NCBI GenBank assembly: GCA_000091205.1
Contig: AP006486.2
Direction: 5' to 3' (one strand)
Source of the DNA: Cyanidioschyzon merolae
Taxonomy: Eukaryota
DNA: 64,000 bases
In this document: positions 642 through 54,950 of the stretch, in pieces
Numbering within the stretch: position 1 is the stretch's first letter
Layout: each line of letters opens with the position of its first letter
Translations under genes and position numbers: made by a program
Notes under the pieces: model-generated
Databases searched by the model: none
Seen by the model: only the letters and a program-made list of their open reading frames with translations
Told to the model about the DNA's origin: nothing

Positions 642-2061
642 CCCATAAACCCGGCCGAGACCCTGCTATACGACTTTTTCGACTCGGTCCGTATTCGTCG
701 AGCAAACCACAGCAACCACTTGGATCTGCTCGGCAACTGCGGCGACTCGGCAGCAACGCCAACCCGTTGAGAAAAGTGTGTCTAGCAAAGTTACCAGCAG
801 CAGCTGCGTTCTTACTGCATTCGCTTCGGCATATGGATCATCCAAGTGACACCTCTGTCAGCATAAGATCGAGGAAGTCCACTTGCGTGGCCCGGTCGTA
901 GACCACAGAGTTTTGTTGTCCTCACATGATTACCAGCACCAGCCTCAGTATTCTTCTCCAACCGATTCCTTTCCCTTCGTCTCGTCTCCGGTTTCCAATA
1001 CACCGGTCTGTAGTCTCCCCAGCTCTATTGCCGGCTGTCGGAAGATGTTGCGGGTAAGGTTCAAGTCCCGATTCCGTCGTTCCCGGCTATTGTGGACGCG
1101 CTCCATGGAGAGACGGAAGTTGCGATCTATGTTTCGGTTCCTGTTTTCATCTTGTTTGTACACAATATCAGTGGACGTTCCTCAGGGGTGACATTTGAAT
1201 GTGGTCAGATGTTCGCCTATGTCTACAGCATCTCCTGATCGTCCTCCTCTTGGAGGCACCTCCGTGTATCGCGTGAACGCTTGCTTCATCATCGCTCTGC
1301 ACATGCCGTTGGCTTGTTCGGTAGGCTCCGCTGGATGCGCTCCTTGGGTTCCAGGTCAGGTGCCATGCGGAAGGATGACGGGCTTCTTCTGGGCGTTCCC
1401 GTCAACGAGTATGGTGTCCGTTGCACACGCAAGCGCACGCTGTCCCATTCGATAGAAGATTTTATGAGCGCGAGGTTGTTCGTATTGAATCCAGTGCCAG
1501 ACGGCGAATGCAGGCTGAAGATCAAGTCGAGAAATCTCGACTCGTCTGGACACCCCCTTTGTACAAAGCGATGATGCGCTCTCCACGAACGGCAATTGTT
1601 GCCGCTTCGACAAGCGATACTTGTTCTCGGTAGATGGTTTTGAATCCATTATCCCTCTGTGCGCTAAGAAGCACCGGACCGACCTGCGTGTATTCCTTCT
1701 ATTCCATGTTTTGTGCAGCACGGAAACCGGTCTCTCACGAAAATGGTCAGTTTTCCAGAATGAAAAGCAATACCAACGTTTCACTTGAAATCCTTCTATT
1801 CAGTGTTCAGCGGAGCAGGTAGACGAGTGCATCAGGTATTCATACGATAGCGTTTGGAGACTCGCACGCGCGCCCCATTTCCATACACCACTTCAGCTCC
1901 TTTTTGTCTCGCTTTGTGCGGACTTGCGCGAGCCAGGTACGATACCGTACCGAAAGCCGCTGTGGAAGCGTCGTATAGGACGCTCCCGGCACTGCCTTGC
2001 TAACGTCCCGAGCTCGAAGGCTGCTCGGAAGCAGGTACCTGGTACCTCCAGGCCAACGGCA

Positions 2062-2889
2062 ATGTTGGGCGTGATTGGTGGCACGTCGCTGTTCCACTCA
2101 CAGCGCTTTGCGGGCTTTGACAGACGACACGTCCATACACCATACGGGGAGGTCGTCTGCTATTGCGACAGTACAGAACCGTCTCTGGTATTCTTGCAGC
2201 GGCACCATGCGGACGCTCATCGTGGTGTTGACGCGTATACGCCTCCACACCGTATAAACCATCGTGCAAACCTGTACGCCTTAAAGCAAGTCGGCGTGGA
2301 CCGCTGTGTAGGTGTCTACAGTGTCGGATCTCTGAACCCCGCAATTCGAGTAGGGACCTGTGTGCTTACCCACGACTTTTGCTCCCTCGCGCAACTCTGT
2401 CGGGCGGAAACGTTTTATGACGAGGACATGCGAGGCCACGCAGTCATCCGCTTTGATCAGATGCTTCGCGACCGAGTTCTGACGTCGCTCAAGGATCTGT
2501 CTGCTGCTTCCCAGATTGGCGATTCGAAGACAGCAGAAACGTCGTCTAAGCAGTCGTTTGTCATGGCTTCAACGGCTTCTGCAGCAATGAGTTTCCACGA
2601 CGGTGGCGTTTACGTGCAAACCGCTGGACCCCGCTTCGAGACACCTGCCGAGGTTCGCATGCTGCGAACGTTCGGAGACGTGGTAGGTATGACTGGTGCC
2701 TCCGAGGCCGTCTGCTGTGGCGAGCTGGGAATCCCCTACATGCAAGTCTGCTTTGTCGATAACCTGGCGAATGGTCTGATCAGTGGAGCAGAACAAACGG
2801 AGATTGCTGAATTTCACGACAATGTGAAGGCTAATCTCAAACGCGTAGAGGTAATTATTGACCGAGTGATTGAGACGTTGCGACATTGA
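2062..2889 (+). CDS. 5'-methylthioadenosine / purine nucleoside phosphorylase (PNP_UDP_1 family, MTAP-like)
   Basis: The ORF spans 1924..2889; the probable start is the Met at 2062 ('MLGVIGGTSL', the family's N-terminal G-rich phosphate loop). 'HTPYGE...LQRHHADAH...NHRANLYALKQVGVDRCVGVYSVGSLNP' and 'VQTAGPRFETPAEVRMLRTFGDVVGMTGASEA' match MTAP/PNP signature regions. The stop is TGA. Confidence 0.8.
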   Translation: MLGVIGGTSLFHSQRFAGFDRRHVHTPYGEVVCYCDSTEPSLVFLQRHHADAHRGVDAYTPPHRINHRANLYALKQVGVDRCVGVYSVGSLNPAIRVGTCVLTHDFCSLAQLCRAETFYDEDMRGHAVIRFDQMLRDRVLTSLKDLSAASQIGDSKTAETSSKQSFVMASTASAAMSFHDGGVYVQTAGPRFETPAEVRMLRTFGDVVGMTGASEAVCCGELGIPYMQVCFVDNLANGLISGAEQTEIAEFHDNVKANLKRVEVIIDRVIETLRH

Positions 2890-4453
2890 GCGCTGTAACC
2901 TGGGCAGGGTATTGCAAGGTCTCGCGCTATCTCGCTTGAACGCCTCGTATGAGTCGTTCACCCGTAGAACGCTTTGAAATGGTGTCGAAACTGGAGCTTG
3001 TCGGATTATACGAGCGCTCCTTTTATAATGGAATGCTTGGTGCGAAAAAAGTATCAAGTGACTGCGCATTGCTGGATATTCGAGCACGATGACAAATAGA
3101 TCATGGCCGTGACAAGCGGCATTCGGACCGGCAACGCGGCAGCTGAGATTGTCTATGGCGCCGAATGCATACAGACTTGCTCTACCAGTTCTTTTAGATC
3201 GAAAGAACATGCGTTCAAGGATATTCGTTCGTTCCATTGAATTTGGGGCTCATCGACAAGTGCCCGCTCAGGCGGAAGCATTCGCAGAGGAGCCATACCT
3301 CCATGCAAACGCTTGCGAGCATGCGTACGGTTTCGTGCACGAATACATGCATACGCTCACAGAAAAACTCAGACAAATGCATATGAATACTAGCCCCGAT
3401 GCGTTGATACATGAGCATCTACCCGTGCACGTGCATACACGAACGTTCACCGCCGTGTACCTCGCTGCAGAAAAGACAAGTGCCTAACGTGCTTGATGGC
3501 GTTTGGCATCGAGGGTTCACCTCTCGGAAAGCATCGCATGCAGCCGGTGATCCGAAACGGATTCCAAAAGTCTCTGGATTCAGAGATACCAATATCAGGA
3601 AACTCTCTGTCGATCAACCGCAAGCAAGCAAGATTGTGCTTTGCAGCGTCGCTGTGCTCCATCAAGATCCATAAACATTTGCTCAACTCCATTATACCGT
3701 TGTTGTTGCATGATGCGAGACATTCACGTAGCGTATCCGCAAGCAAACGCGAGGTTTTTACAGTCTAGAACCCAGCCGGGGCATCGTTCGCGGCAATATT
3801 GGGCACTCAGGCTCCTGTGCTGACGCAGACCAGACTCTCGGTGTCGAGCTGCTACGCACACCCCGCGTATAACATAACATATGAGACAGGTACACATCTG
3901 TTTGCTCCATGCACGCCGGATGTAACCAAGGTCCCCACTGATGCGTGCTGGTCATTGGTCGTCGGGAAATCGATCACCATTACCACCATCATGATCATCA
4001 TTTTCAGCACTTGTCCGCTGGAGAATTGCTCGGCTCTTCTGTCCACGCATGCGGCAGCGTGCACTGCGCAGGGCCTGTAGAGACCATCACCCTACACGCA
4101 AATACTGAAAGCCTCGATCCCATCTTGGTCCACGCGAACGTTCTTACGTACGACCCGTGCACATGCAGGCGCCATTGTATTCACTGAATGAAACGAGTAC
4201 GAGCGGCGCGCGTGAACGCTCATCATTCCTTTCACGAAACTGGGGAAGCTGTGGACCAGGAGCCACGTCCAAGGCCAAGCGCCACCCGATTCAGTGTTTC
4301 GCATCTTGCCTCTTTCGATATCAAGCCTTGGGAAATGCGATCAGAGCGGACGCTCATCCGAACTCCACCCTTTGCAGTTCATGTCATGGGTGTGTACGTC
4401 CCGCGTCCAGAGAGATACCTCACAAACTGAAGGTGATCAGCGTGCGTCTCGCT

Positions 4454-8900: not shown

Positions 8901-9057
8901 CCCAAGAAGCAAACGAACATATGGAATGACGGTGACGGGACATGTTTCGATTCTCTGACCACCGTATCCAGCTGATCGGTGTATGCTTTGTAGGCTTCAG
9001 TCCGAGCGCGTATGAACGTCCAAACGGATCGTGCTAACGATATCCTCCAGAAGTATA

Positions 9058-9235
9058 CGAGGCCGCTAGAAGTGTACAACGGATACGGTTGCACACAGGC
9101 AAGAGGCATCCATTTTGCAGCGTGTTCATTGAATCGGAAAAAAAGAAGTTACCGAGGCCGCTAGAAGTGTACAACGGATACGGTTGCACACAGGCAAGAG
9201 GCATGCATTGTGCAGCGTGTTTATTGAATCGGATC
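9058..9235. repeat. Local tandem duplication (about 2 x 100 bp)
   Basis: 'gaggccgctagaagtgtacaacggatacggttgcacacaggcaagaggcat.cattttgcagcgtgtt.attgaatcgga' occurs twice head-to-tail; overlapping minus-strand ORFs share 'MPLACVQPYPLYTSSGL'. Confidence 0.7.
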
Positions 9236-15848: not shown

Positions 15849-16799
15849 CGCAAAGCCCGCCTATTTGCTCCAAGACTGAGCGTTTCGTTGTGCGGTGGAG
15901 CCACGGAATCCAACATTTCTATTTGTTCGCTTGTACACGGACATGATAAGTACGATTTACACACACCAGCGCTATGCAACAAGCGAGGCATTCGCATACG
16001 AACGATGTCCAGTATATCGGTCTAAACATCGAAAGATACTCGGTTCGGAGGATATTTAGCGGATGCAGTATGCAACGGTGCACCGCACGAGCGCAGCACA
16101 AGGTCCAGCCATTTCATATGTTTGCGCCGATGTTCCGCTTGAGTCACCAAGGAAAGGAACACCTGGTTTATTCGTGAGCCACTCGGTTGACCACTTACCA
16201 CAGCACGCTTCCTCGGCCGCAGACAGGCAAGCGATCTCGGGTATCGATGCGACTTGCTGAAGACAAAGTCGACCACTTGAATAGGTCCAAACCAGCCAGC
16301 TGCGGAGAGACTGGTCGGTCCCGTTCAGCCAGGCTTTCTTTGCGTGAGTTTCTGAGGTACACCCCACGCCCACCCTACACTGTTGAAGCTATTTGGCATA
16401 ACTTGAGCGTCCCAGTTGGACAGCAGAACACCAATAGACACGCGAAATTGAACCACGGCCGGCCGGGTCTCTGTCACGGAAGCTTGACGCGGTGACTGCG
16501 CTGGGTCTCCTATGAGGAACCGGTCGGACGACCACGAGCGATCCGTTCCACGATAGCACCGTCTGCCAGGACGTCAACAGCTAAGCGAAGCGTGCGCACG
16601 AGCGCATCCAGTCTCTCGTCGAAGCGCTCTAGCTGGGCTTCGAGCACCCGCAGCGCTACCACTGTGCGCTGGTACGCCGCTGCCGCCTGCCGTAGACACT
16701 CCGTTTCTCGTTGTAGCTGCTTCTCCCAACTGGCAGGCGATCCCTCCGTCGTCGACGTCTCCGCTGCCATGGAGAACACGCACACACCGACAACGAATG

Positions 16800-19395
16800 C
16801 CTTTTACAAGAAAAAACGTTGCTGCCGCAAGTGGTATAGTAGTGGCGACAAACGCACCGTAGACAAGGAGTCTTCAGCCGACGTGCAGACGCATCTCAGT
16901 CTTTCTCGACCGGCCACCCACTACTTCTTCCAACATTTTTTCATATAGTTCGAGTTTGAGAGGTTGTCCAACAAAATTCTATCTCGTCCACTCTGGAAGT
17001 CTATTCTCCAGCACCGCACGTCTCCTTATATTGATAGCGGCATTAATGTCTCGGTTCACAAACTCCATCCGTTTCTTGCCATCACTGGATGTACTTAATA
17101 ATGCGAGTAGTCCACGAACTTTCGCTCTCCTTTCCATTTGCTCCTCCGTCAACGGTCCGTGCTTTGCTATTTCCTCAGGGCTCCGCTAATACTTTTCCAT
17201 CTCGACCCTCTGAAGTGTACACCCCAGTTCATGGTGTGTATACGATGTTCGGAAGTCATCTACGGGTATCGTAACGAAACGCCGTGCGCACTCCTTGCAC
17301 GTTTTTGTCGTTGGAGCTGGTGTAATGCCTTTTTTCGACGCCCAGCGCCCTGCTCCATACGCTACTACGAGCCTCTGACTTTCATTCTCCCTCAGGGCGC
17401 TCAACTGATTGAAAAAGTTCGAGAACGCCCGCTGCTTCCCACAATACAAATTCATACGCAAACGAGCCCACCGGGGCTTGGTGGATTCTTTCCACAGGGC
17501 ATCCCAATGAGCAGCGCGAACTTCCATGAACTCCCGAAATGCTTCAAAGTCGGTTCCTCGGCTCGTCACCTCGCTCAAAGCTTCCAGGTGATCCCTCACT
17601 CCTGACTTCTAGGTCTCATTTTGTTTCCTCGCATTCATTATACCGGAATCCCGGTAGGATCTCGCTCTCGGGAACTTGAAAACTCGCATGTCTTTATGAC
17701 GTAAATTGTCGTCGACACTATCTTCCGCACGCTTGGGTACAGCGACGGTTATGATATTTGTGTTTCCGGGGTCCGCGCCAACGACAAAGCCGTTATCGTG
17801 CACTTTCTGTGTTGCACGATCCACCTCCTTCTTTTCTCGATGCTTCGCCGCGTCAACGACAAAGCCGTTATCGTGCACTTCGTGTGTCGCAGGATCCTCC
17901 TTCTTCGTACCTTCATCCTTCGCCACGGGCGGAGCTGGACGATCTGTCTTTAAGCGCCGATAGTGTACAGACATGGCTACTCCATCGTTTTCGATCATCC
18001 CAGTGAATACCTTTCGCTTGCTCACTTTCAGACGTTTGAAATCGACGAAATTCTTCTTCCAGTGCGTCTCCCGGCTTTCGCCGGAGAACTCCTCCCTGCT
18101 GACATTGAACTCCGGACTGATCTCCCTCATGATGCCGTAAAGGACGCCTGAATCGATAGTCACGAAATGTGACCTGATGTTGCACATTGGAACCACGTTG
18201 AAGCGCTTCCCCATTAGGAAAGCCTTCCGCCTCTCCCACTCTTCATTTGTCTCCTCATTCAGCTTCATTTCCGCCTTGCGTTCCAGCTCTCCGTCCAGCA
18301 ACACGAAATAGCGCAGGGCGAGGCGATAGTATCTTTCCTTATCTTTTTTCGACTCTGATAGCTTGTCTGTTGGACTCAGCAGCCCCAGTACCGCACGATG
18401 CTCTTCTACAACCGCACGGATGACAGAAGCTTCATTCGTGCTCTCGTTTGACGCCTTCTCTCCGACGAATTCGATCTCCTGTTCATGCTTGCGATCGTTC
18501 GTGACGCCATTGGTAATCGCCCATTTTCCTTTGCGAGCGATGCCAGGGTACAGCGCAAACACGGCGCGTATCATGAAGCGTTCGAGGTTCATAGTAAAAT
18601 GGTTCTTCAGGTTCCTGATGTACTTCATCGCTCCGTATGTGTAAATGCACCAGTCAATTTTGTATCGAGTACCGTCGAAGCTCTAAAAGGGATGTTTTTC
18701 GTGGAGGGCATGCACTAGCACATTTTCCCTCGGCGCTTCCGCTGTACCAAGCATCAGGTGTCGAATAAAGGTCTTATCGAGAAACCCGTCCGGAATCCCG
18801 ACCGTTTCCATCTGCGCCACGTCGCGATACATCTCCCTCGCCATATGCATCAGTCCTGAAGACGCCTTGACAATACTCTTGGAGTATGACGCAACACTGT
18901 TTTCGATAGCGTCTCGCAGCTTTTCCCTGTACGGATCCTTGATATTTTTAAGAAGACAGACTTTCACCACCTTCTTGTCGCACAGTCGTCTTTCGTGCCG
19001 CCTTCGACGCAGAGCGTCCCACTTTCAGTCCTTCTTCTCTTCCTTTTCTTCTGGACTTGGCACTGTTTTTCTGTTTTTTCTGGCAGCCCGCGACACTGGG
19101 CCTCCAGGATCATCGACTTGCTTTTCATAACTTCCTTTTTTTTGTTTTTTTTTGGAAAACAACGCTCCCTCCAACGCCTCTGATATAAACAGCGAGGAAA
19201 ACTTGAATAAACCAAACTGAGGGTTGAAATATAACTGAACTGAAAAGTACACTCTGCTATGACTTTAACGCAAATGCAACTTGTACTTGAGAGCAACACG
19301 CTCAAGATCGCGATCCCGTTTCCCTTCAACGACGACATGCGCGTCGTATCTCATGCCTGCCAGATATGGAGGTGCGCGTATCGACCGCGATGCCC
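16800..19395 (-). mobile_element. TnpB/Fanzor-like (IS605-OrfB-type, OMEGA nuclease) element, copy 1
   Basis: Minus-strand ORF fragments encode a Lys-rich NLS-like N-terminus (KKKQKKG...RKNRK), RuvC-I '[16 protein letters not shown]' (Asp near 17770), the zinc finger 'CKECARRF...SYTHHELGC', and RuvC-III 'RDINAAINI' (after the in-frame TAG at 17186-17188). About 180 bp of conserved 3' UTR reaches a sharp homology boundary near 16803 shared with three other loci. A subterminal palindrome 'cgacgacatgcgcgtcgt' lies at the 5' end (about 19335-19352). Confidence 0.7.
16980..19252 (-). pseudogene. Fanzor/TnpB-like nuclease gene, disrupted (frameshifts plus in-frame TAG) or intron-containing
   Basis: The coding potential is split over ORFs 19025..19252, 18683..18970, 17609..18628 and 17186..17599, then continues after the TAG to the stop at 16980-16982. 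The frame order differs from copy 3, so at least one copy is frameshifted. Confidence 0.55.
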
Positions 19396-19399
19396 CCTG

Positions 19400-20560
19400 G
19401 CACTGTATGGGCCGAGGGGCCCACCATGCGCACCCGGTTCAGTCGGATATCCATGCAGACCCCAACGCACCGCAAGAACACTTGGATGAAATCGATGCAG
19501 ATTTGGCTGAAGCGACGGTTATGCGAAAACACGCTCGAATCGTTCCCCAGAAATGTAGAAGGCTCCTACCGCCTCAAGCGAACTGTTCGAACAACCATAT
19601 GGGAACGTAGACACGGAACCAGTCGCGCCAGTAACGCCCGCCTTGACTCTATACCGGAACTACAACCTAGCATACACATGCGAGTACTGGTGGGAGGCGC
19701 TGGAGTTCCCGGGACTTGCTCGCGGTATCCAGTGGCTCGCCAAAATCCGCGTTGGTGGTTGCTGACTACCAGCACCTGCGCTAAACCATATAGGAACACT
19801 GGAATCGCAGTGGGAATCACACTGTCCCTGCTGTGGAAACGATAAACCCGAGACGCTGACATATTTAGGCTTACAGTGCGCGCGCTGGAAGCAGGAGCGC
19901 AGCGAGCTCCTTGAAGGACGGCATCAGCCGGGTATCACCGTGATAGTCGAAGGCCGGACACTCACTTTGAGTGCAGCACTGGCAACTGATGGTCCGCTAA
20001 CGGAGCCTCAGCGCTCATTCGTGGCCAACAGACTCACGTGCTACCTTCCAAGCGGAAGGTCTAGCGAATCGGACGCGCACACGGGTTTAGTATGCTTTCT
20101 GCGCCTATCCACTGTGGTGAGCGTCAAGCACAAACCCGCATTGCCAACCGACAACAACGCGTTCCATGCATGATCACGAAGGAGAGAGACGACTCCCAGA
20201 ATATATCTTAACGGCCAAGTGTCTCCAGCGTGTCGTGCCGCGAAGGCAAGCTTGCATCCGCAGACCGTCCGAGCACAAACTGACGACGAGACCCGATTCT
20301 ACGTCGGGTGAAGCACCCCTCGAGCCGACGCCCTCTGTGGTATGGAAAAGCCGTTCTAGCTCGATAAACTCTCTGCCCCAGCGGTTCAAGCGCAAAGGCG
20401 GATATGGAACGGCAGGTATTAGGTACCCACGACAGGACGTATGAGACGATCAGTATCTCCAAGAAGAAGTATAGGTAATGTAACTTGGAGGGAGGGGGCT
20501 TTATGGATATATTACCGCGCGCTGAAGTAAAACGCAAAACAAAAGAGAACGAAAAGAAAA
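19400..20560 (+). mobile_element. 5'-truncated non-LTR retrotransposon (LINE) remnant with a CCHC tail and A-rich 3' end
   Basis: Frame-2 translation around 19820-20173 gives 'HCPCCGNDKPETLTYLGLQCARWKQERSELLEG', the C..C...ET..[HY]L..C..W..ER zinc knuckle typical of LINE ORF2 C-termini. The 3' roughly 270 bp (20290-20560) is homologous to the 3' part of the SINE-like family and ends in 'aaaacgcaaaacaaaagagaacgaaaagaaaaag'. Confidence 0.35.
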
Positions 20561-20599
20561 AGCGCACAATAGGAGAATGCTGGCCCAAGTAAACGTCTT

Positions 20600-23125
20600 A
20601 TCAATAGAAAAATTGCCGTCGTTGAAGGGAAACGGGATCGCGATCTTGAGCGTGTTGCTCTCAAGTACAAGTTGCATTTGCGTTAAAGTCATAGCAGAGT
20701 GTACTTTTCAGTTCAGTTATATTTCAACCCTCAGTTTGGTTTATTCAAGTTTTCCTCGCTGTTTATATCAGAGGCGTTGGAGGGAGCGTTGTTTTCCAAA
20801 AAAAACAAAAAAAAGGAAGTTATGAAAAGCAAGTCGATGATCCTGGAGGCCCAGTGTCGCGGGCTGCCAGAAAAAACAGAAAAACAGTGCCAAGTCCAGA
20901 AGAAAAGGAAGAGAAGAAGGACTGAAAGTGGGACGCTCTGCGTCGAAGGCGGCACGAAAGACGACTGTGCGACAAGAAGGTCGTCAAAGTCTGTCTTCTT
21001 AAACATATCAAGGATCCGTACAGGGAAAAGCTGCGAGACGCTATCGAAAACAGTGTTGCGTCATACTCCAAGAGTATTGTCAAGGCGTCTTCAGGACTGA
21101 TGCATATGGCGAGGGAGATGTATCGCGACGTGGCGCAGATGGAAACGGTCGGGATTCCGGACGGGTTTCTCGATAAGACCTTTATTCGACACCTGATGCT
21201 TGGTACAGCGGAAGCGCCGAGGGAAAATGTGCTAGTGCATGCCCTCCACGAAAAACATCCCTTTTAGAGCTTCGACGGTACTCGATACAAAATTGACTGG
21301 TGCATTTACACATACGGAGCGATGAAGTACATCAGGAACCTGAAGAACCATTTTACTATGAACCTCGAACGCTTCATGATACGCGCCGTGTTTGCGCTGT
21401 ACCCTGGCATCGCTCGCAAAGGAAAATGGGCGATTACCAATGGCGTCACGAACGATCGCAAGCATGAACAGGAGATCGAATTCGTCGGAGAGAAGGCGTC
21501 AAACGAGAGCACGAATGAAGCTTCTGTCATCCGTGCGGTTGTAGAAGAGCACCGTGCGGCACTGGGGCTGCTGAGTCCAACAGACAAGATATCAGAGTCG
21601 AAAAAAGATAAGGAAAGATACTATCGCCTCGCCCTGCGCTATTTCGTGTTTCTGGACGGAGAGCTGGAACGCAAGGCGGAAATGAAGCTGAATGAGGAGA
21701 CAAATGAGGAGTGGGAGAGGCGGAAGGCTTTCCTAATGGGGAAGCGCTTCAACGTGGTTCCAATGTGCAACATCAGGTCACATTTCGTGACTATCGATTC
21801 AGGCGTCCTTTACGGCATCATGAGGGAGATCAGTCCCGAGTTCCATGTCAGCAGGGAGGAGTTCTCCGGCGAAAACCGGGAGACGTACTGGAAGAAGAAT
21901 TTCGTCGATTTCAAACGTCTGAAAGTGAGCAAGCGAAAGGTATTCACTGGGATGATCGAAAGCGATGGAGTAGCCATGTCTGTATAGTATCGGCGCTTGA
22001 AGACAGATCGTCCAGCTCCGCCCGTGGCGAAGGATGAAGGTACGAAGAAGGAGGATCCTGCGACACACGAAGTGCACGATAACGGCTTTGTCGTTGACGC
22101 GGCGAAGCATCGAGAAAAGAAGGAGGTGGATCGTGCAACACAGAAAGTGCACGATAACGGCTTTGTCGTTGGCGCGGACCCCGGAAACACAAATATCATA
22201 ACCGTCGCTGTACCCAAGCGTGCGGAAGATAGTGTCGACGACAATTTACGTCATAAAGACAAGCGTCTGCTGATGTTGTCAAGAGCTAGATATTACCGGG
22301 AATCCGGTATAATGAATGCGAGGAAGAAAATCGTTTCATGGAATTCAGGAATGAAAGATCACCTGGAAGCTTCGAGCGAGGTTACGAGCCGAGGAGCCGA
22401 CTTTGAAGCATTTCGGGAGTTCATGGAGGCTCGCGCTGCTCATTGGGATGCCCTGTGGAAAGAATCCACCAAGCCCCGGTGGGCTCGTTTGCGTATGAAT
22501 TTCTGTTGTGGGAAGCAGCGGGCGTTTTCGAACTTTTTCAATCAGTTGAGCGCCCGGAGGGAGAATGAAAGTCAGAGGCTCGTAGTAGCATACGGAGCAG
22601 GGCGCTGGAAGACCCAAAAGGGACTATGCCAGCTCCAACGACAAAAACGTGCAAGGAGTGCGCACGGCGTTTCGTTACGATGCCCGTAGATGACTTCCGA
22701 ACATCGTATACACACCATGGACTGGGGTGTACACTCCAGAGGGTCCAGATGGAAAAGTATTAGCGGAGCCCTGAGGAAATAGCAAAGCACGGACCTTTGA
22801 CGGAAGAGCAAATGGAAAGGAGAGCGAAAGTTCGTGGACTACTCGCATTATTAAGTACATCCAGTGATGGCAAGAAACGGATGGAGTTTGTGAACCGAGA
22901 CATTAATGCCGCTATCAATATAAGGAGACGTGCGGTGCTGGAGAATAGACTTCCAGAGTGGACGAGATAGAATTTTGTTGGACAACCTCTCAAACTCGAA
23001 CTATATGAAAAAATGTTGGAAGAAGTAGTGGGTGGCCGGTCGAGAAAGACTGAGATGCGTCTGCACGTCGGCTGAAGACTCCTTGTCTACGGTGCGTTTG
23101 TCGCCACTACTATACCACTTGCGGC
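20600..23125 (+). mobile_element. TnpB/Fanzor-like element, copy 2 (inverted relative to copy 1, about 97-98% identical)
   Basis: Same ORF set on the plus strand: 'MKYIRNLKNHF...', RuvC-I '[10 protein letters not shown]' (Asp at 22177-22179), and 'RDINAAINIRRRAVLENRLPEWTR' (Asp at 22899-22901). The 5' end is about 25 bp shorter than copies 1 and 3; the homology boundary is near 20625. Confidence 0.7.
20699..22968 (+). pseudogene. Fanzor/TnpB-like nuclease gene, disrupted
   Basis: Nonsense TAG at 21985-21987 (copy 1 has 'cac' His). A frameshift near 22610 replaces 'ASKKGITPAPTTKTCKECARRF' with 'KTQKGLCQLQRQKRARSA'. The in-frame TAG is at 22751-22753. Confidence 0.6.
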
Positions 23126-23194
23126 AGCAACGTTTTTCTTTCGAAAGGCGTTCGCTAGCAGCCTTCGATGATGCGTTCTTCGGGAACAGCTGCG

Positions 23195-23880
23195 TTTTTT
23201 TTTCTGATGAAAAAATGGTTAGATTCACTATGGATCCCAGAATTCGGAATGGATAATGGCTTTCGGGAAAGCGTCCACGATGAAGCGCCTACCTTCAAGT
23301 TCTATCACGCATACTTCCTCTCGGATATACTGGTCGTTTCGTATATTCTATCGTGCGCCGAGCCTGCCGTGAACACCCGCCGTAGCGCTTATACCACTGA
23401 AGCAGATGCCACACGGAGACAGAACGGCTTTGCCATACCACTGAAGGCATCGACTCGAGGCGTGGTTCCTCCGACGTGGGGTCGGAGTACATAATATATC
23501 TGGGAGCCTGTAAGCTGCGCAGACAGACGCACTGCCTGTGGCAGCGCGGAGCGATCTACAAGGAGTCCACTGTGACCACGGAGACGCCCAGACGCAGCAT
23601 CCTGCTCCAAGTCCCCGAATGAAATGCGTTGCGGACGAGTTGTGCAGGTATCGCCACAAAACCTGCCATTGGAGGAAGCATGAAGCACTAGCTAGCCCCG
23701 AAGACTCGTCCGGCTCGCGGGACCTTCCGCCTAGAAGGTAAAGTTTCGAAGATGCGGAAACTTTCCCCCTTTTCCATGAGTCATATCAAGGTCGAAAGAA
23801 ACTGTTATCGAGTTGCTAGTCAGTTGTTAGTTTCTGTTCTTTCGTCTCTAGGAGAAAGCTCGCTGCTCACGGTCGGGCAC
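23195..23880 (-). mobile_element. SINE-like non-autonomous retroposon, copy A (about 0.68 kb) with A-rich tail
   Basis: Collinear (about 85% identity by eye) with 29325..29990 and, in reverse, 49770..50455. The tail on the element strand is 'catcagaaaaaaa' (plus-strand T-run at 23203-23210). Confidence 0.5.
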
Positions 23881-24251
23881 AACTCGAGGGCCCACCAGTT
23901 CGAAAACTGGCTATTGCTGCTGCTGCCCCTATGCAACGCGCTGGAGTGCGCTCGCTCTACAACCTCCTGTCCGCGCCCTTGGCCAAAACTGACCACCTGT
24001 GATCAACGCGCGATCGCAGCGTTGTGTGGTTGCGTCGCTTCGCGAGGAAGCGCGCAGGCCCACGACCCGTGTGCGGATGACGCCGACATTGAGATCGCGC
24101 TCGCGATGGCGATCGCAAACAGACTTCAGGGCTCGCCGTTGTGCTCGCGACTCTGTTTCGTGAACAAAGCCTGCGCACTTAGCACGCTCATTTTATATCG
24201 ATTCATTTAGGAGCGCCAGCAGTGATCTAGAAGGAGAATAGAAGCGCTACA

Positions 24252-29183: not shown

Positions 29184-29324
29184 GTCACCCTGCAGCTGAA
29201 AGCACAGGCGAAACGGCGCTTTCCTGAACCGCTACCAGCCACGTAGATACAGCACTTTGAGCATTGAAAAAGTAAGGCTGCGGGCGCCTGCCGCAGTGCC
29301 GGTGCGCTGGCTCTGTTATCCCTT

Positions 29325-29990
29325 TTTTTCGATGACGAAACGTTTATATGGACCGTGGATCCCAGATTGCTGAATCCATACAGGCTTTCGGGAATGTTTC
29401 CATTATGCAGGGCAATACTCCCAAGTTCCGTCACGTATACTTCCTTTCGGATATACTGGTCGTGTTGTACATGCTATCGTTCACAGAGTACCCGCTGTGA
29501 GCGCTCGCCGTAGCGCCTTTACCGCTGGTGCGGATGAAGCGCGGAGACGGAACGGCGTTGGTATGCCCATAGACATGTAGGCTCGAGGCATGGTGCACCT
29601 GATACGGTGTCGGAGTACGTAGTAATTCTGGGAGCCTGCAAACTGCGTAGACAGACCTACTGCCTGCGGTACCGGGAGGCGATAAACTAGGAGTCCACCG
29701 CGACCGGGGTGATATCCAGATGCAGCTTAACTGCCCCTAGTCCTGGAATAAACTGCACTGCGGACGAGTTGCTCAGATCTCACTGAGGCACGAGGCACAG
29801 TGGGGAGCAAGAAGCGCAAGCGCGGCAAACTCGTCCGGCTCACGGGACCTTCCGCCTGGAAGGTAAACTAGCGATAATACGGAAACCTTTTCCCCTTTTA
29901 CCGTCTACGTTAGAGAGGGAAAGAAATCGCTATCTCGTTCCTAGTTCGTGGTTCGTCTCTGTTCTCTTTTCTATCCCACATCAATCTATG
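29325..29990 (-). mobile_element. SINE-like retroposon, copy B
   Basis: Homologous to copy A over its full length ('ggatcccagattgctgaatcc...', 'gtccggctcacgggaccttccgcctggaaggtaaac...'). A-rich tail on the element strand (plus-strand 'ccttttttt' at 29325-29333). Confidence 0.5.
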
Positions 29991-33004: not shown

Positions 33005-33734
33005 AACAAACGACGCCGTACCTCGCTAGATTCTGTGCATGGCGGTGGACCGCAGCATGCTACTGGTGCCGCGCGGTGCTGGCGAACGCTCCGATGTCGT
33101 CGTTAGTCGTTGTCGTTGGAGCAGCAGCTGCGAGGCGCGCAGCGGAAGCAAAACCCGTGGATGCTTCTTGCCCATTTTACTGGATAAAGCAGGAATAGAA
33201 GATCATGCATCGGGCACCGCATGCCCCGAGTTTCTTGTTCGAGTCCCAAAGTCCGCCGGCACGCTGCGCATGTCCATTGTATTGCGGCACAAGTGAGCTT
33301 GCATCCTCATCCACGCCTTGAATCAAACAATGGTTATCATGTTGCAACGGGTTCACAACATGCGTATCACGTACACCACCAGTGTCGCAGATTCGAAAAG
33401 AGACGAACGGCAAGAGGCGTGCCCGCTTCCGCGACTCCAGTTGCGCACCTATACACTGCTGTATAGGAAATGCGGGAATTGTAAAGTATTCTATCCCAGC
33501 TGCTGGCTAGCGTCCTCTATCGATCGTGCCAATGTATCGATCTCAGTGTCTGTCCAGAGACCAGCCAGTTCAGCGGCATCCGCGCTATACCATCGTGCGA
33601 GACGCATCGACCGGGATGGATTCAAGCCCGGAGAGCGCACTGGATGCCTAAAAGAAATCATCGAGTAGACAAATTGAATCGAGGATAGCGGTCTTTGTTC
33701 TAACAAAATAAAATGGCGAGAGAACCCGACCTGT

Positions 33735-34545
33735 ACAGAGCAGTCTGCATCCGGGCCAGAAAAGGCATACGCATCCCAGCCTGCAGTGTCGTGCATTTCC
33801 GATAATCCGAATTACACATAGAGCAGTCTGCATCCCGACCAGAAAAGGCATACGCATCCCAGCCTGCAGTGTCGTGCATTTCCGATAATCCGAATTACAC
33901 ATAGAGCAGTCTGCATCCGGGCCAGAAAAGGCATACGCATCCCAGCCTGCAGTGTCGTGCATTTCCGATAATCCGAATTACACATAGAGCAGTCTGCATC
34001 CCGACCAGAAAAGGCATACGCATCCCAGCCTGCAGTGTCGTGCATTTCCGATAATCCGAATTACACATAGAGCAGTCTGCATCCGGGCCAGAAAAGGCAT
34101 ACGCATCCCAGCCTGCAGTGTCGTGCATTTCCGATAATCCGAATTACACATAGAGCAGTCTGCATCCCGACCAGAAAAGGCATACGCATCCCAGCCGGCA
34201 GTGTCGTGCATTTCCGATAATCCGAATTACACATAGAGCAGTCTGCATCCCGACCAGAAAAGGCATACGCATCCCAGCCTGCAGTGTCGTGCATTTCCGA
34301 TAATCCGAATTACACATAGAGCAGTCTGCATCCCGACCAGAAAAGGCATACGCATCCCAGCCTGCAGTGTCGTGCATTTCCGATAATCCGAATTACACAT
34401 AGAGCAGTCTGCATCCGGGCCAGAAAAAGCATACGCATCCCAGCCTGCAGTGTCGTGCTTTTCCGATAATCCGAATTACACATAGAGCAGTCTGCATCCG
34501 GGCCAGAAAAAGCATACACATCCCAGCCTGCAGTGTCGTGCATTT
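33735..34545. repeat. 83-bp tandem satellite, about 10 units, two alternating variants
   Basis: Unit 'cagtctgcatcc[g/c]g[g/a]ccagaaaaggcatacgcatcccagcctgcagtgtcgtgcatttccgataatccgaattacacatagag' repeats with an exact 83-bp period (ORF starts at 33812, 33895, 33978, 34061, 34144 all 83 bp apart). The array generates the chained 77-aa 'MHDTAGWDAYAFSG...' artefact ORFs. Confidence 0.9.
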
Positions 34546-34699
34546 GCAATGGAGTCACAGGGGCGCTGCCTATGATAGGGAGTGGGGCGCGTTCGTGGAG
34601 CATCCGCGAGGAAATGTTGAGCGCTTCTATTCGCTTTTTTATGGGTGCGCTTCTCAGGGCCCACCATATCGGACACAATCGTAGAGTGGTGAGGGCCTT

Positions 34700-49769: not shown

Positions 49770-50455
49770 GTTGAGTGTGAAATTGCACCTAGGGTGCTGA
49801 CAAGCGACAAGCGCGGCATCGACGACTGCGAGAAAGAACTGAAACGAACCACTGACTAGCAGCTCGATAACAGTTTCTTTCGACCTTGATAGCAATCGAT
49901 GAAATCGGGAAAAGTTTCCGAATCTTCGAAAGTTTATCTTCCAGACGGAAGGTCCAGCGGTCCGGACGAGTCTGCGGGGCTAGTGCTTCATGCTTCCTCC
50001 AGTGCAAGGTGCTATGGCGAGACCTGCGTAGCTCGTCTGCAACACAAGCAATCGGGAAGTAGGGAAAGGAAGCCGCGCCTGGGCGTCGCCCTTGTCGCAG
50101 TGGACTCCTGGTAGATCGGTTCGCCCTGGCGCGGGCTCCCAGAACGATGATGTACTCCGACCCCGTGTCGGATGAGCCCTGCCTCGAGACGACGCCCTCA
50201 GTGGTCTTGCAAAGCCGCTACGTCTCAGTGCAGCATCTGCTTCAGCAGTATATCAGCGCTACGGAAGGTGCTCGCGGCAGGTACTCGGCGCAGGATAGAA
50301 CATACGAAACGACCAGTATATCCGAGACCAAGTATGCGTTATGGAACTTGGAGGTAGATGCCTTATGGCGGACGATTCCCCGGGAGCCATTATCGATTTC
50401 GAGTTCTGGGATCCATGGTCAATTGTCCACGGATTGTCATCGAAAAAAGAAATCG
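49770..50455 (+). mobile_element. SINE-like retroposon, copy C (plus orientation)
   Basis: The reverse complement of 49790-49900 matches the 5' region of copies A and B ('atcaaggtcgaaagaaactgttatcgag.tgctagtcagt'). The 3' end is '...gagttctgggatccatggtcaattgtccacggattgtcatcgaaaaaagaaa'. Confidence 0.5.
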
Positions 50456-50591: not shown

Positions 50592-50704
50592 CCAGTGATA
50601 GCTCACTCGCTTCCCATGCGAGGCTACGAGTTGGTAGAGCATTCGGCTGTAGTGGTACTTTGCATCTACCGAAGGGTCCCTGGTTCGAGTCCGGGTCACT
50701 GGAA
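50592..50704 (+). tRNA. tRNA-Tyr(GUA) gene with a canonical 15-nt intron and an additional 23-24-nt insertion in the D-loop; possibly a pseudogene
   Basis: Hand-folded: acceptor 'ccagtga'/'tcactgg' (7 of 7 pairs); 'ta'; D-stem 'gctc'..'gagc' with D-loop '...agttggta' preceded by an extra 'ctcgcttcccatgcgaggctacg'; anticodon stem 'ttcgg'/'ccgaa'; loop 'ctGTAg' (U33, anticodon GUA, purine 37); intron 'tggtactttgcatct' 1 nt 3' of the anticodon; variable loop 'gggtc'; T-arm 'cctgg ttcgagt ccggg'; discriminator A. A pol III terminator 'ttttttt' follows at 50707-50713. The architecture is near-identical to known tRNA-Tyr genes (…TAGCTCAGTTGGTAGAGC…CTGTAG[intron]…GGTTCGA.TCC…). Confidence 0.55.
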
Positions 50705-51389
50705 GATTTTTTTCGAAACTTGAGAATCTCGGGATCTGCTCGAAACCACTGCCTAGGTAAGTCATTTTCTGAATCGGGACTCTGCAGCAACTAGCCGATC
50801 CCCGAAAAATTTACAATTCTTGTTCGCAGCCTGCGCAAGGATACTTGCGTCCCGGCAGACGCTTGTCCCTTCCGCAAGCTCCAACGAGAGTGCCTGGAGG
50901 AATCATGTTACAGTCCGTCAAACATTCTAGGATCACCGGGTGCCGGGCATTTGGATAGTGCAAGGCCGCTGGATGCGTCTTTGCGAATTCTGTACACTCA
51001 CAGAATGGCTTCGCGTTTTGTTGATTCGTATCATATCCAGGCGCACAGTACGACACATGTGAGGAACGTGGACACAAGGCCGGAACCTGTGGAAAGAACG
51101 AATTTCCCGCGACTCCTGGGAGAATCTGCGCGGCATAAGAACAGCTTTGATTTCGCCGCACCACCAACCAGATGAGGACACACGGAGCAGTTGGCCGGCA
51201 GGTTTGTCCCGATCGCCGGATCTTCTTACAATGTAAACTTGGAGACTCGACAAAAAACCTTGCCCCCATTATGCGCTGCAATATATTAGAACAGGAGCCG
51301 TTCGCTAATTGCTCAACCGCGGTCTGTATTCGTTTATCCTGAATAACGATTCATTGGTTCCGGCACACACCTCGAAAGGAGGCACCGCC

Positions 51390-54145
51390 GCCTCCAAACA
51401 CCTCTCGAAAGTTCAACGACGTCACCGTTGTACAGTAGTGGCGAGTGACCCGCCCTAGACAAGAAGTCTCCGACTGCTATGCAGACGCCTCCGCGTCTTT
51501 CTCGACCGGCCAACTACTACTGCATCCAACTTTTTCTCATATACTTCGACTTTGAGAGGCTGTCCAACTATGTTCTCTCTTGTCGACTCTGGAGGTGTTT
51601 CCTCCAGCACTGCACATCGCCTTGTATTGATAGCGGCGATAAAGTACCGGCCCACAAACTCCATCCGTTTCGTGCCCCCGTTGGTTGTACTTACTAGCGT
51701 GAGTAGTCCACGAACTTTCGCTCTCCTTTCCACTTCCTCCTCCGTCAGCGGTCCGTACTTTGCTATTTCCTCAGGGCTCCTCTGGCAATTTTCCATTTCG
51801 ACCCTCTGAAGTGTGCACCCTAGCTCGTGTTGTGTGTAGGAGGTTCGGAACAGATCTATCGGTTTTGCAACGAAAAGCCTTGCGCACTCCTTGAACACCC
51901 TCGTCGTTGGAGCTGGCTTAGTGCCTTTCTTGGGCGCCCAGCGCCCTGCTCTGTATGCTGCTACTAGCCTCTGATTTTCACCCTCGTTCAAGGCGCTCAA
52001 CTGATTGAAAAAATTCGCGAACGCTCGCTACTTACCACAATACAGATTCATTCGCAAACGAGTCCATCGGGGCTTTATATACTCCTCCCACACCGCATCC
52101 CAATGCACAATGCGAACTTCCATGAATATTCCGAAAAGATTCAAAGTCCGCTCCACGGCTCGTCACCTTGCTCATAGCTTCCAGGTGCTTCTTCAGTCCA
52201 GCATTCATATCTCGATTTTCTTCCACTCATTCAATATACCGGATTCTCGATAGTATGTCGCTCTCGAGAACCTCAAAAGGCGCATATCGTTCTGACGAAA
52301 GTAACCGTCAGTAACATCTTCCGCGCGCTTGGGTACAGCGATGGTTACGATATTTGTGTTTCCGGTGTCCCCGCCAACGAAAAAGTCGATATCTTGCACT
52401 TTCTGCGTCACAGGATCCACCTCCTTCTTCTCTTCATGCTTCGCCGCGCCAACCATAACGTGGTTATCCTGCACTTTCTGTGTGGCAGGATCCGCCTACC
52501 TCTCATCTTCATCCTTCACCGCGCCAACGACAAGGTCGTTATCCTGCACGTTCTGTGTCGCAGGTTCCGCCCCCTTCTCATCTTGATCCTTCACCGCGTC
52601 AACAACAAGTTCGTTATTCTCCACCTCCTGCGTTGCAGGATCAGACTCCCCCTTTTCTTCATCCTTCGTGACGGGCGCAGCCGAGGGAGGGACTGGCCGA
52701 TCTTTCTTCAACCACCGATAGTGTACAGACATGGCTACTCCATCGGTTTCGATCATCCCTGTGAATACCTTTTATTTGCTGACTTTCACACGTTTGAAAT
52801 CGAAGATATTCTTCCACAAAGGCTCCCGGATTTCACCGGTGAGGTCCTCCCTGTTAACATTGAACTCCGGACTGATCTCCCTCATGATGCCGTAAAGGAC
52901 GCCTGAATCGATAGTCACAAAATGTGACTTGATGTTGCTCATTAGAACCACGTTGAAGCGCTTCCCCATTAGGACAGCCTTCCGTCTCTCCCATTCTTCA
53001 TTTCTTCCTCAAACAGCTTCATCTCCGCCTTCCGCTCGAGCTCCCGGTCCAGAAACACAAAATACCGCATTATGAGATAATAGTATCTTTCCTTATCTTT
53101 TTTCGACTCTGATATCATATCTCTTGGATTCGCCAACCACAGTACCGCACGTTGCTCTTGTCTAGCCGCACGGATCGCAGAAGCTTCGTTCGCGCTCTCG
53201 TTTACGCCTTCTCTCTGACAAATTCGACCTCATCTTCACGCTTGCGATCTTTCGTGATGGCCTTGATAGTCGCCCGTTTTCCATTGCGAGATAGGCCCGG
53301 GTAGAGTGCAACCACGGCACGTAACATAAAACGTTCGAGGTTCACTGTCAAATGGTCCTTCAGATTCGTGGGGTACTTCATGGGCCCATATGAGTGAACA
53401 TCCCGGTAACCCCAGTATCGAGTACCACTGAAGCTGTAAAAGGGATGTTTTTCGTGGAGGGCATGCACCCGCTCATTTTCCTTCCGAGCTTCCTCTGTGC
53501 CAAGCATCAGCTGACTAACAAAGGTCTTGTCGAAAAAATCTTTCGGAATCTCTACCGTTTCCATGTGGGTCACGTCGCGATCCATCTCCCTCGGCAAATG
53601 CATCAGTCCTGACAACGCGTTGACAATACTCTTGGAGTAAGAGGCCACATGTTTTTCGATAGCGTCTCGCAACTTACCCTGTAGGGATCCTTGATATGTC
53701 CAAGAAGGAAGGTTTTCACCACCTTCTCGTTGTAAAGTCGACTTTCTTGCCGCCTTCGATGTAGGGCCTCCTGCTTTCGGTTCTTCAGCTCTTCCTTTTC
53801 TTCAGGACTCGGCACTGCTTTTTGTTCTTTTCTGGCAGCCGGCGACCTTGGACCTCCAGGATCGTGGGCTTGCTTTTTCATAAATTTCCTTTTCTTGTTT
53901 TTTAAAGATAACGCTCTTTGAACGCTTCTGTTAGATACTGCGCAAAACACTTGACTAGACTTGTTTGAAGCTTGAAACGAAAATGAACAGAAACACTGTA
54001 CTTTGCTAGGACCTGAACGGAAATTTAACTTTTTTCCAGCTGAACAACACGCTAGAGATCATAATCACGTTTCCCTTCAACAGCGGCACGCGCGTCGTGT
54101 CTCATGTCTGTCTGATCTCCGAGGTGCACTCACCGAGCGCGATGC
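51390..54145 (-). mobile_element. TnpB/Fanzor-like element, copy 3 (diverged, nuclease-dead)
   Basis: Minus-strand ORFs 53603..53950 (NLS-like 'KNKKRKFMKKQAHDPGGP...'), 53202..53672, 52496..52756, 52205..52474 (RuvC-I '[17 protein letters not shown]') and 51455..52000 (zinc finger 'TSYTQHELGCTLQRVEMENCQ'). It reads through the position that is TAG in copies 1 and 2, but the RuvC-III motif has degenerated to 'GRYFIAAINT' (Asp->Tyr, tac at 51644-51646). 5' and 3' terminal blocks are homologous to copy 1. Confidence 0.65.
51455..53950 (-). pseudogene. Fanzor/TnpB-like nuclease gene, frameshifted and catalytically degenerate
   Basis: At least two frame changes relative to copy 1 (for example 'DPYRVSCETLSKNMW' versus copy 1 'DPYREKLRDAIENSV') and the RuvC-III D->Y substitution. 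Extra internal ATQ.V.DN.[LF]VV[DG]A repeats. Confidence 0.6.
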
Positions 54146-54837
54146 CTGCACCGCGCGAGACGCCTCAGCGATCGATGAAGGACACGTGTTCGACAACCCG
54201 CCTTGGCACATGCTTGTACGCATCGCACTGCAGCTGAAATAAACTATCGTAGATCGGAAATTGACGTAGAACGATCTCCTGCTATAGACTCTGTCGCTGG
54301 TGCCGACGCTACTGCCCATCGCAGTACCGCCCCGACATACAAGGGGCTGTTGGGGCCTGACACAAAACCCCTCGACGCTTCTATCAAAAGCGTAGCGTTC
54401 TCTGCAGCTTCCGCTTGTGTGGATGAGTTGTGCATCAATCTTCTCGTTAGGAATTTCATTTGTTTTATTGATCGTAACCAAACAAGGTAAGGTAGTATTC
54501 CTGGACTCGTATATGCGTCTGTTCGTGATGCTTGTTATGCATGCCGCACGGACGCTGCAATGAGGAAATGACCTGAATTGTGCTTCGATCTTGCGTCATA
54601 CGCTGGTACTGATGGCAGTTCAAGCCATTTGCATGCTATCGTCTTTGTCCAAGTTATGGTGCTTGCTACTCTCCCGGATCCGGTGATCTTGGTAGAGGCA
54701 TCGCATACATAGAGTGTCTATACTTAGCATTCCATTTGACCGACGCATCCGCCAAAAGCACATACTGTATTCTGATCTACTCTATAAGATTAGTTTCAAG
54801 AGCCTAACCCGAACATCGAGCCCGGAAGCGACAAAGC

Positions 54838-54950
54838 GAACAACGAATGCCTTTGAGAAAAACGCTGCCGCCCGCGGTGTACAATAGTGCCGAATGACCT
54901 GCCCTAGACATGAAGTCTCCAACTGACGTGCAGACGTTTGCAAAAAATAC
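54838..54950 (-). repeat. Solo 3'-terminal fragment of the Fanzor-like element (no ORF attached)
   Basis: 'acaacgaatgcctttgagaaaaacgctgccgcccgcggtgtacaatagtgccgaatgacctgccctagacatgaagtctccaactgacgtgcagacg' aligns with the 3' boundary block of copy 1 (16785-16890) and copy 3 (51400-51480), then diverges. Confidence 0.55.

Follow-up and report, generated by a model that had tools for sequence, protein, structure and literature searches.

The analysed stretch of DNA, called the window in what follows, is a 64-kb part of chromosome 4 of Cyanidioschyzon merolae 10D; it contains long intron-free eukaryotic ORFs, and three of its proteins (BAM79229, BAM79233 and BAM79234) match C. merolae 10D proteins exactly. 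Two kinds of repeat are considered here, a non-coding unit of about 0.65 kb and a 2.5-kb repeat with broken ORFs in which TnpB/Fanzor-like motifs can be recognised. The copies are intergenic, as was originally predicted, and lie beside a GATA gene, a Bdp1-like gene and a tRNA-Tyr-like locus. They are listed below by position; c1 to c3 are stated in the Repbase/CMe-1A orientation, and the consensus to which positions refer is that of CMe-1A, taken from supplementary file 2 of PMC3627910.

16756-20612, minus strand: full-length B-type element of 3.86 kb, consisting of the c4 module, arm 1 and a 3' extension of about 42 nt
19389-16799, minus strand: arm 1, Fanzor core, consensus 648-3168
19383-20612, minus strand: c4 with its spacer, the 1.23-kb 5' module of a B-type Fanzor1 variant, about 85-88% collinear with L067 4396-5680 (T run 20608-20612; TE-N2-like part about 19975-20607; extra spacer of about 0.6 kb down to 19390)
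about 19975-20612, minus strand: c4, a fourth and older copy of the 0.65-kb repeat, from alignment with c1-c3 and nhmmer (E=3e-48)
20614-23162, plus strand: arm 2, 5'-truncated Fanzor core, consensus 703-3169 plus about 12 nt
23195-23872, plus strand: c1, solo TE-N2_CMe copy, nhmmer E=8e-217, 82% identical to consensus 2-644 (T run 23195-23203; body 23205-23843, consensus 2-644; subfamily 3' extension to about 23872)
23180-23194 and 23873-23887: weak candidate duplication flanking c1, 10/15 matches
29323-29971, plus strand: c2, solo TE-N2_CMe copy, 80% identical to consensus 1-643 (T run 29323-29329; TATCCC on both sides, at 29317-29322 and 29972-29977)
49831-50451, minus strand: c3, solo TE-N2_CMe copy, 75% identical to consensus 1-636 (T run 50443-50451; flanks CACAGCGGTCGAT at 50464-50452 and CGCAGTCGTCGAT at 49830-49818, 10/13 matches)
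51108-51282, plus strand: degenerate TE-N2 fragment, profile positions 425-601, nhmmer E=3e-11, between Fanzor copy 3 and the tRNA-Tyr-like gene
51420-54146, minus strand: copy 3, Fanzor core, consensus 643-3145, about 80% identical to the arms
54856-54936, minus strand: isolated 81-nt fragment of the 3' end of a Fanzor element, consensus 3078-3158, BLAST 85%, E=2e-20
57228-57448, plus strand: degenerate TE-N2 fragment, profile positions 446-664, nhmmer E=3e-7

The three full copies proposed at 23.2, 29.3 and 49.8 kb are present as c1, c2 and c3, and repeat finding, alignment and BLAST (E-values 1e-143 to 1e-40) give them sharp common boundaries and unrelated flanks. Their orientations had also been read correctly, with two copies on the minus strand and one on the plus strand when the A-rich tail is taken as the 3' end; the RNA or retroposon orientation of c1 is presumed to be the minus strand. 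In the Repbase/CMe-1A orientation, c1-c3 begin with a T run followed by CGATGAC... and end in ...GTTTCTGTTCTTTC. The tails quoted for c1 (catcagaaaaaaa) and c3 (gtcatcgaaaaaag) are both in place, and the A-rich end is constant in every copy examined. The end-to-end identity of about 85% given in the original prediction was too high, however; global pairwise identity over aligned positions is 72% for c1/c2, 80% for c1/c3 and 69% for c2/c3, that is 69-80%. The inventory was also incomplete, as c4, two fragments and the three neighbouring Fanzor repeats had been missed. With these included, the 64-kb window holds six TE-N2 pieces (c1-c4 and the two fragments), four of which adjoin 2.5-kb Fanzor-encoding repeats (c1, c3, c4 and the fragment at 51108-51282).

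The nearby tRNA-Tyr(GTA)-like gene (50592-50703, plus strand) apparently carries two interruptions, one within the D-loop region and one following the anticodon; it was missed by ARAGORN and scored only 15.8 bits with the Rfam tRNA model. Highly disrupted tRNA genes are a reported feature of C. merolae, and a gene interrupted in this way is probably ordinary for its genome.

The 0.65-kb repeat is almost certainly TE-N2_CMe of C. merolae 10D, a non-coding, non-autonomous element that equals the first ~645 bp of CMe-1A, a 3.2-kb element carrying a Fanzor1 gene. The family is already known, having been catalogued in 2013, and is not new; re-identification of a catalogued repeat matters little for annotation. 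CMe-1A is the sole Fanzor1 family described in C. merolae, 3169 bp in length and present in about 150 copies, each about 80% identical to the consensus (PMC3627910), and its 5' 635 bp are 95% identical to TE-N2_CMe, of which there are about 70 copies (Bao and Jurka 2013, Mob DNA 4:12, PMC3627910). Both were described as being without inverted termini, with duplications not determined and the class listed as unknown (PMC3627910). The window copies agree with the Repbase entry for TE-N2_CMe in genome, sequence, length and lack of inverted termini, and the identities of c1, c2 and c3 over consensus 1-644 (82%, 80% and 75%) fit a family with members about 80% identical to their consensus. The three 2.5-kb neighbours, with the repeat itself placed at 16799-19389 (minus), 20617-23150 (plus) and 51420-54141 (minus), align to the remainder, consensus 648 (or 703)-3169, at 81-87%. 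One difference from the published TE-N2_CMe/CMe-1A consensus is that it begins at CGATGAC and so includes neither the T run nor the preferred YGA flank. The Fanzor-bearing element also matches a novel interspersed element with a truncated WSV486-like ORF reported in 253 copies from C. merolae (Nozaki et al. 2007, BMC Biol 5:28, PMC1955436), which averages about 3.2 kb and accounts for about 5% of the genome; that report did not set the 0.65-kb module apart. White spot syndrome virus, the source of WSV486, is itself listed as a Fanzor-carrying virus by Bao and Jurka (PMC3627910).

Searches of Pfam with the broken Fanzor ORFs and of the PDB (phmmer) with the consensus protein gave no match, and the Fanzor identity therefore rests on the published CMe-1 match together with the visible motifs GADPGNTN and NRDFNAAINI. 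Divergence across copies of the Fanzor ORF is 0.151, 0.122 and 0.197 at codon positions 1, 2 and 3, while the TE-N2 part diverges by 0.17-0.20; this codon-position bias indicates that selection acted on the protein during diversification of the family, when TE-N2 drifted. Within the same ORF, a 75-bp unit (consensus 2117-2196) is present in two copies in the arms (22023-22172 and 17773-17927) and in four in copy 3 (52369-52681), and represents in-frame expansion of a repeat within a linker of the protein.

As TE-N2 lies directly upstream of the Fanzor ORF in composite elements, it could be regarded as a working part of the Fanzor system, either an RNA (guide/omega RNA) or a regulatory module (promoter), maintained by selection. 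Such a role is extremely improbable. Conservation along TE-N2 is flat at about 0.8 per column, its divergence equals that of the third codon positions of the adjoining ORF, Rfam gives no matches, and solo copies lie well away from Fanzor genes. According to a review (PMC13565253), a Fanzor guide RNA would be expected at the 3' end of the gene, at or overlapping the end of the ORF and the right end of the element, whereas TE-N2 occupies consensus 1-645, upstream of the ORF at 906-3107, or stands solo. For the copies in the window, nothing indicates a present cellular function.

Further copies were available from several JGI metagenomes, which hold contigs 97.5-99.4% identical to the window. Scanning of metagenome contigs with a 20-base degenerate pattern gave 56 loci, 55 of them from a close strain, and about 30 further copies were examined in this way; one metagenome match (L056) was set aside as a chance match, and a scan of viral contigs returned no matches. 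According to consensus mapping and an nhmmer profile, the close-strain contigs carry about 17 distinct solo and 9 distinct composite copies. Solo copies stop at consensus 634-647; in composites, TE-N2 continues unbroken into the Fanzor part, and the junction is constant in the 9 distinct composites. Two copies share consensus 1-581 and the tail with the others, but have a different 45-nt far end. In the tree, c1, c3 and the other solos with duplications group in a clade of short branches within the composite-type sequences, distinguished by 10 diagnostic sites; c1 and c3 are sisters, and c2 groups with the composite-type sequences. The solo 0.65-kb copies are best explained as a younger lineage that branched off the composite element and was amplified independently. 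Head-to-head TE-N2 pairs also occur at run ends; at L042 (10277/10355), L019 and L053 a second head-to-head T-run pair is seen about 80 nt apart, and c4 and c1 are likewise paired in the window.

Several familiar classes of element do not fit the termini of the repeat. Terminal inverted repeats are absent, the best end-to-end inverted match scoring 6.5 in comparison to a shuffle mean of 5.8 +/- 1.0, and a MITE or other class II non-autonomous element was rejected on this ground and because the duplication length is not fixed. A solo LTR was also rejected, as TG...CA termini and a 4-6-bp duplication would be required, and the termini are instead a T run followed by CGATGAC... and ...GTTCTTTC; no LTR elements have been reported in the C. 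merolae genome (PMC1955436). The 13-copy consensus has stops in all six frames and no ORF in any of them, which bears out the earlier view that no ORF is conserved.

The A-rich tail, the variable duplications, the non-coding sequence and the many copies relative to few LINEs are all what would be expected of a canonical SINE, which would be transcribed by RNA polymerase III from an internal promoter derived from a tRNA, 5S or 7SL RNA and mobilised by a LINE. This identity is nevertheless very improbable and can be considered largely refuted already. No similarity to tRNA, 5S or 7SL was detected in Rfam at E<=10 in c1, c2, c3 or a composite junction, nor at the gathering score in the whole window, and ARAGORN found no tRNA in the repeat when run on the window and 11 loci; no such head had been recognised by eye in the original prediction. 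At 0.65 kb the repeat is also long for a SINE, and it derives from a 3.2-kb parent. An A-box/T-arm-like resemblance seen by eye at consensus 610-662 was discarded, being on the wrong strand and lacking statistical support. The name of SINE-like retroposon thus holds insofar as it describes a dispersed, non-coding, non-autonomous family with a retroposition signature, and fails for a SINE in the strict sense.

That signature is found at the T-run end and in the flanks. Every copy opens with 5-12 T residues (on the opposite strand, an A tail), and YGA stands before this T run in about 14 of the 24 distinct copies. The upstream flank of a copy resembles its own downstream flank more closely than it does the downstream flanks of the others (permutation 0/20000). 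In an ungapped duplication test allowing one mismatch, for which the 99th percentile of non-cognate pairs is 12 nt, six copies have duplications ending at the T run: L058 (14-15 nt), L052 (13), L064 (12), L034 (11), and L036 and L066 (10 each). Duplications were detected in about 6-8 of 22 solo or truncated copies, and the check for target-site duplications recommended at the outset therefore gave a positive answer, with lengths varying from 10 to 15 bp and the duplications abutting the A/T run in younger copies. No flanking duplication was found at the five A-type composites with both ends, which agrees with Bao and Jurka failing to determine any. It had been suggested that the retroposon reading would fall if the copies lacked duplications and were segments of something larger; they are indeed segments of a larger element, namely the terminal 0.64 kb of CMe-1A, but duplications are not absent. 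Truncation is one-sided as well. The L058 copy comprises only 283 nt beside the run and has a perfect 14-nt duplication, and copies ending at about 285, 581, 636-647 and 1084 all keep the tail; some tail-less fragments also exist.

Several of the duplications look alike and also resemble the 10 nt with which the Fanzor core begins (CGCGGTCGAT), a likeness that could reflect either a site preference or a site-specific mechanism acting at the DNA level. The idea that the leaders of composites retain the left end of the Fanzor element (GGCATCGCGGTCGAT) was abandoned, as the fit is no better for composites than for solos. The start of the Fanzor core forms a perfect hairpin, GCGCG-GTCGATA-CGCGC (window 19372-19389, minus strand; consensus 647-663), with a loop resembling the YGAT motif that stands ahead of the T run in many TE-N2 copies.

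The T/A run, the variable duplications abutting it and the truncation with the tail kept together indicate one-ended, target-primed-like integration at the A run; the signature is retroposition-like and is not that of a canonical SINE. The best explanation overall, and one that is probably correct, is that the repeat is TE-N2_CMe, copied by a target-primed retroposition-like process. We infer that the copies arise by such a process from the A-rich end, a more specific proposition for which the chances are about even. The RNA would be the strand chosen in the original prediction, antisense to the Fanzor gene of the parent, and would end in ...GTCATCG plus a few A residues. Copying from this A run would be primed by a nick in the target DNA, with a preference for positions right after YGA(T); an early stop of copying would yield copies of 283, ~580 or ~645 nt, or else of full length, and a second nick 10-15 bp away would generate the flanking duplication. 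The putative enzymes may be supplied in trans by the few non-LTR retrotransposons of the genome, which has 26 such copies, 3 of them with an intact RT ORF (PMC1955436); mobilisation in trans by a LINE is something that we only infer. An RT motif regular expression and tblastn with a human L1 RT segment gave no match in the 640 kb of sequence searched.

Among known systems, LINE-dependent retroposons without a pol III head (RIME/SIDER of trypanosomatids, and mammalian HAL1 and SVA) are alike in being non-coding or partly coding with an A-rich 3' end, in having variable duplications of about 10-15 bp and truncation away from the tail, and in amplification in trans, which is presumed in the case of TE-N2. 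In comparison to these, TE-N2 has no demonstrated sequence relationship to a LINE, and its parent carries an RNA-guided nuclease gene in antisense, which is unprecedented for retroposons. Also counting against retroposition are the shortness of the A runs and the selection on the Fanzor ORF, which would not readily be expected if an antisense RNA were passively retroposed. This selection, together with the statement of a 2026 review that no retrotransposon is known to carry Fanzor (PMC13565253), keeps a DNA-level mechanism alive.

According to such a mechanism, TE-N2 would descend, as a non-autonomous element, from a Fanzor1 transposon that is class II or unclassified, with the T run and 0.65 kb being the left end of CMe-1A; cuts staggered by 10-15 bp at a preferred motif (...CGCGGTCGAT), possibly with involvement of the Fanzor nuclease, would account for the duplications, and the solos would be one-ended or abortive products. 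This is possible, though rather unlikely. The repeat does form the left end of a Fanzor element through a junction that is constant in nine distinct composites, the Fanzor ORF evolved under selection, and the flank motifs resemble the 5' hairpin of the core (GCGCG-GTCGATA-CGCGC). The nearest non-C. merolae Fanzor, at 43% identity, lies beside a DDE_3 Tc1/mariner transposase ORF, which suggests that the C. merolae Fanzor lineage derived from a mariner-type DNA transposon. On the contig concerned (L068, JGI 3300008963), the Fanzor gene (1146-3254) is directly downstream of the DDE_3 ORF (53-958; Pfam E=1e-27), and the organism is more AT-rich. There is also a parallel in MCi-2, an unclassified Fanzor1 element of Mucor circinelloides (PMC3627910), which is likewise associated with Fanzor1, lacks inverted termini and has patterned duplications (11-12 bp). 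In both MCi-2 and TE-N2/CMe-1A one end is constant and the other variable; however, in MCi-2 it is the 3' side, where the Fanzor gene lies, that stays constant, and in TE-N2/CMe-1A it is the side upstream of the gene, and there is no sequence similarity between them.

Against a DNA-level origin, the element has neither a transposase nor inverted or subterminal repeats, the duplication length varies from 10 to 15 bp, and truncated copies keep only the homopolymer-run end, whereas a DNA transposon that has lost internal sequence normally retains both of its ends. No eukaryotic DNA transposon superfamily is known to show this combination of features.

The arrangement of the copies in the window also has to be considered in terms of segmental duplication of larger blocks rather than transposition. 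c1 and c3 are each found on the downstream side of a Fanzor core and share its orientation; arm 2 ends 33 nt before the c1 T run, and c3 is 0.97 kb downstream of copy 3. The two are also each other's closest relatives (80%; sister taxa), their 5' flanks are weakly similar (p about 0.01-0.08), and the Fanzor arms at 16803-19337 and 20614-23146 form an inverted pair, 97% identical, that represents an inverted duplication or gene conversion. It may thus be that c1 and c3 are paralogues from one duplicated block of Fanzor core and repeat and not independent insertions. As an account of the window copies in general, segmental duplication is improbable, since c2 and the ~17 distinct solos elsewhere have unrelated flanks and sharp common boundaries, the copy numbers in the literature are about 70 plus 150, the flanks of c1 and c3 show marginal similarity, and their loci differ over 0.93 kb; one pair at most would be explained, not the family.

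The arms are part of a larger structure. The B-type element at 16756-20612, with its 3' terminus set by comparison with L067, is collinear with the L067 contig copy at about 85-88%, and its flanks CCGTCGTCGA (16746-16755) and CCGTCGTTGA (20616-20625) form a 9/10 duplication abutting both termini. Arm 2 begins abutting the c4 T run. It appears that the B-type element split an older core, the remainder of which is arm 2, by nested insertion; homology of the left flank to consensus 648-702 is marginal (p about 0.04-0.07), and the 97% identity of the arms is most readily explained by subsequent gene conversion. Of the Fanzor ORFs recovered, only the one in L067 (6001-8259, JGI 3300050362 contig) is intact and nearly full-length, encoding 752 aa with 71% identity to the consensus protein. 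The B-type lineage with the 1.23-kb 5' module is a candidate for the most recently active one.

What is added for the TE-N2_CMe/CMe-1A class is therefore the T/A run, the YGA(T) preference, the 10-15-bp duplications, the one-sided truncation and a nested full-length insertion with a 9/10 duplication. A tentative extension is that the whole CMe-1 family, and not just the 0.65-kb solos, integrates in a target-primed manner from the A run with 10-15-bp duplications, carrying, in antisense, a Fanzor1 RNA-guided nuclease gene under purifying selection; alternatively, the long patterned duplications seen here and in Mucor MCi-2 would mark an undescribed Fanzor-associated mechanism of DNA insertion. 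This extension, with either outcome, is doubtful at present. Reviews hold that Fanzor on a retroposon-like element is nonexistent and would be expected to give no advantage (PMC13565253). If the features listed above for TE-N2_CMe/CMe-1A are confirmed genome-wide, it would be the first case of an element that bears a Fanzor and integrates with a retroposition-like signature, which would bear on the role of Fanzor nucleases when the host element cannot excise.

Two tandem repeats were also observed in the window. An array of an 83-bp unit at 33654-34617 has at least 9 copies, 97-100% identical; its copy number differs between the window and the metagenome contigs, which break there. At 9049-9233, a unit of 90-95 bp is present in two adjacent copies that are 93% identical.
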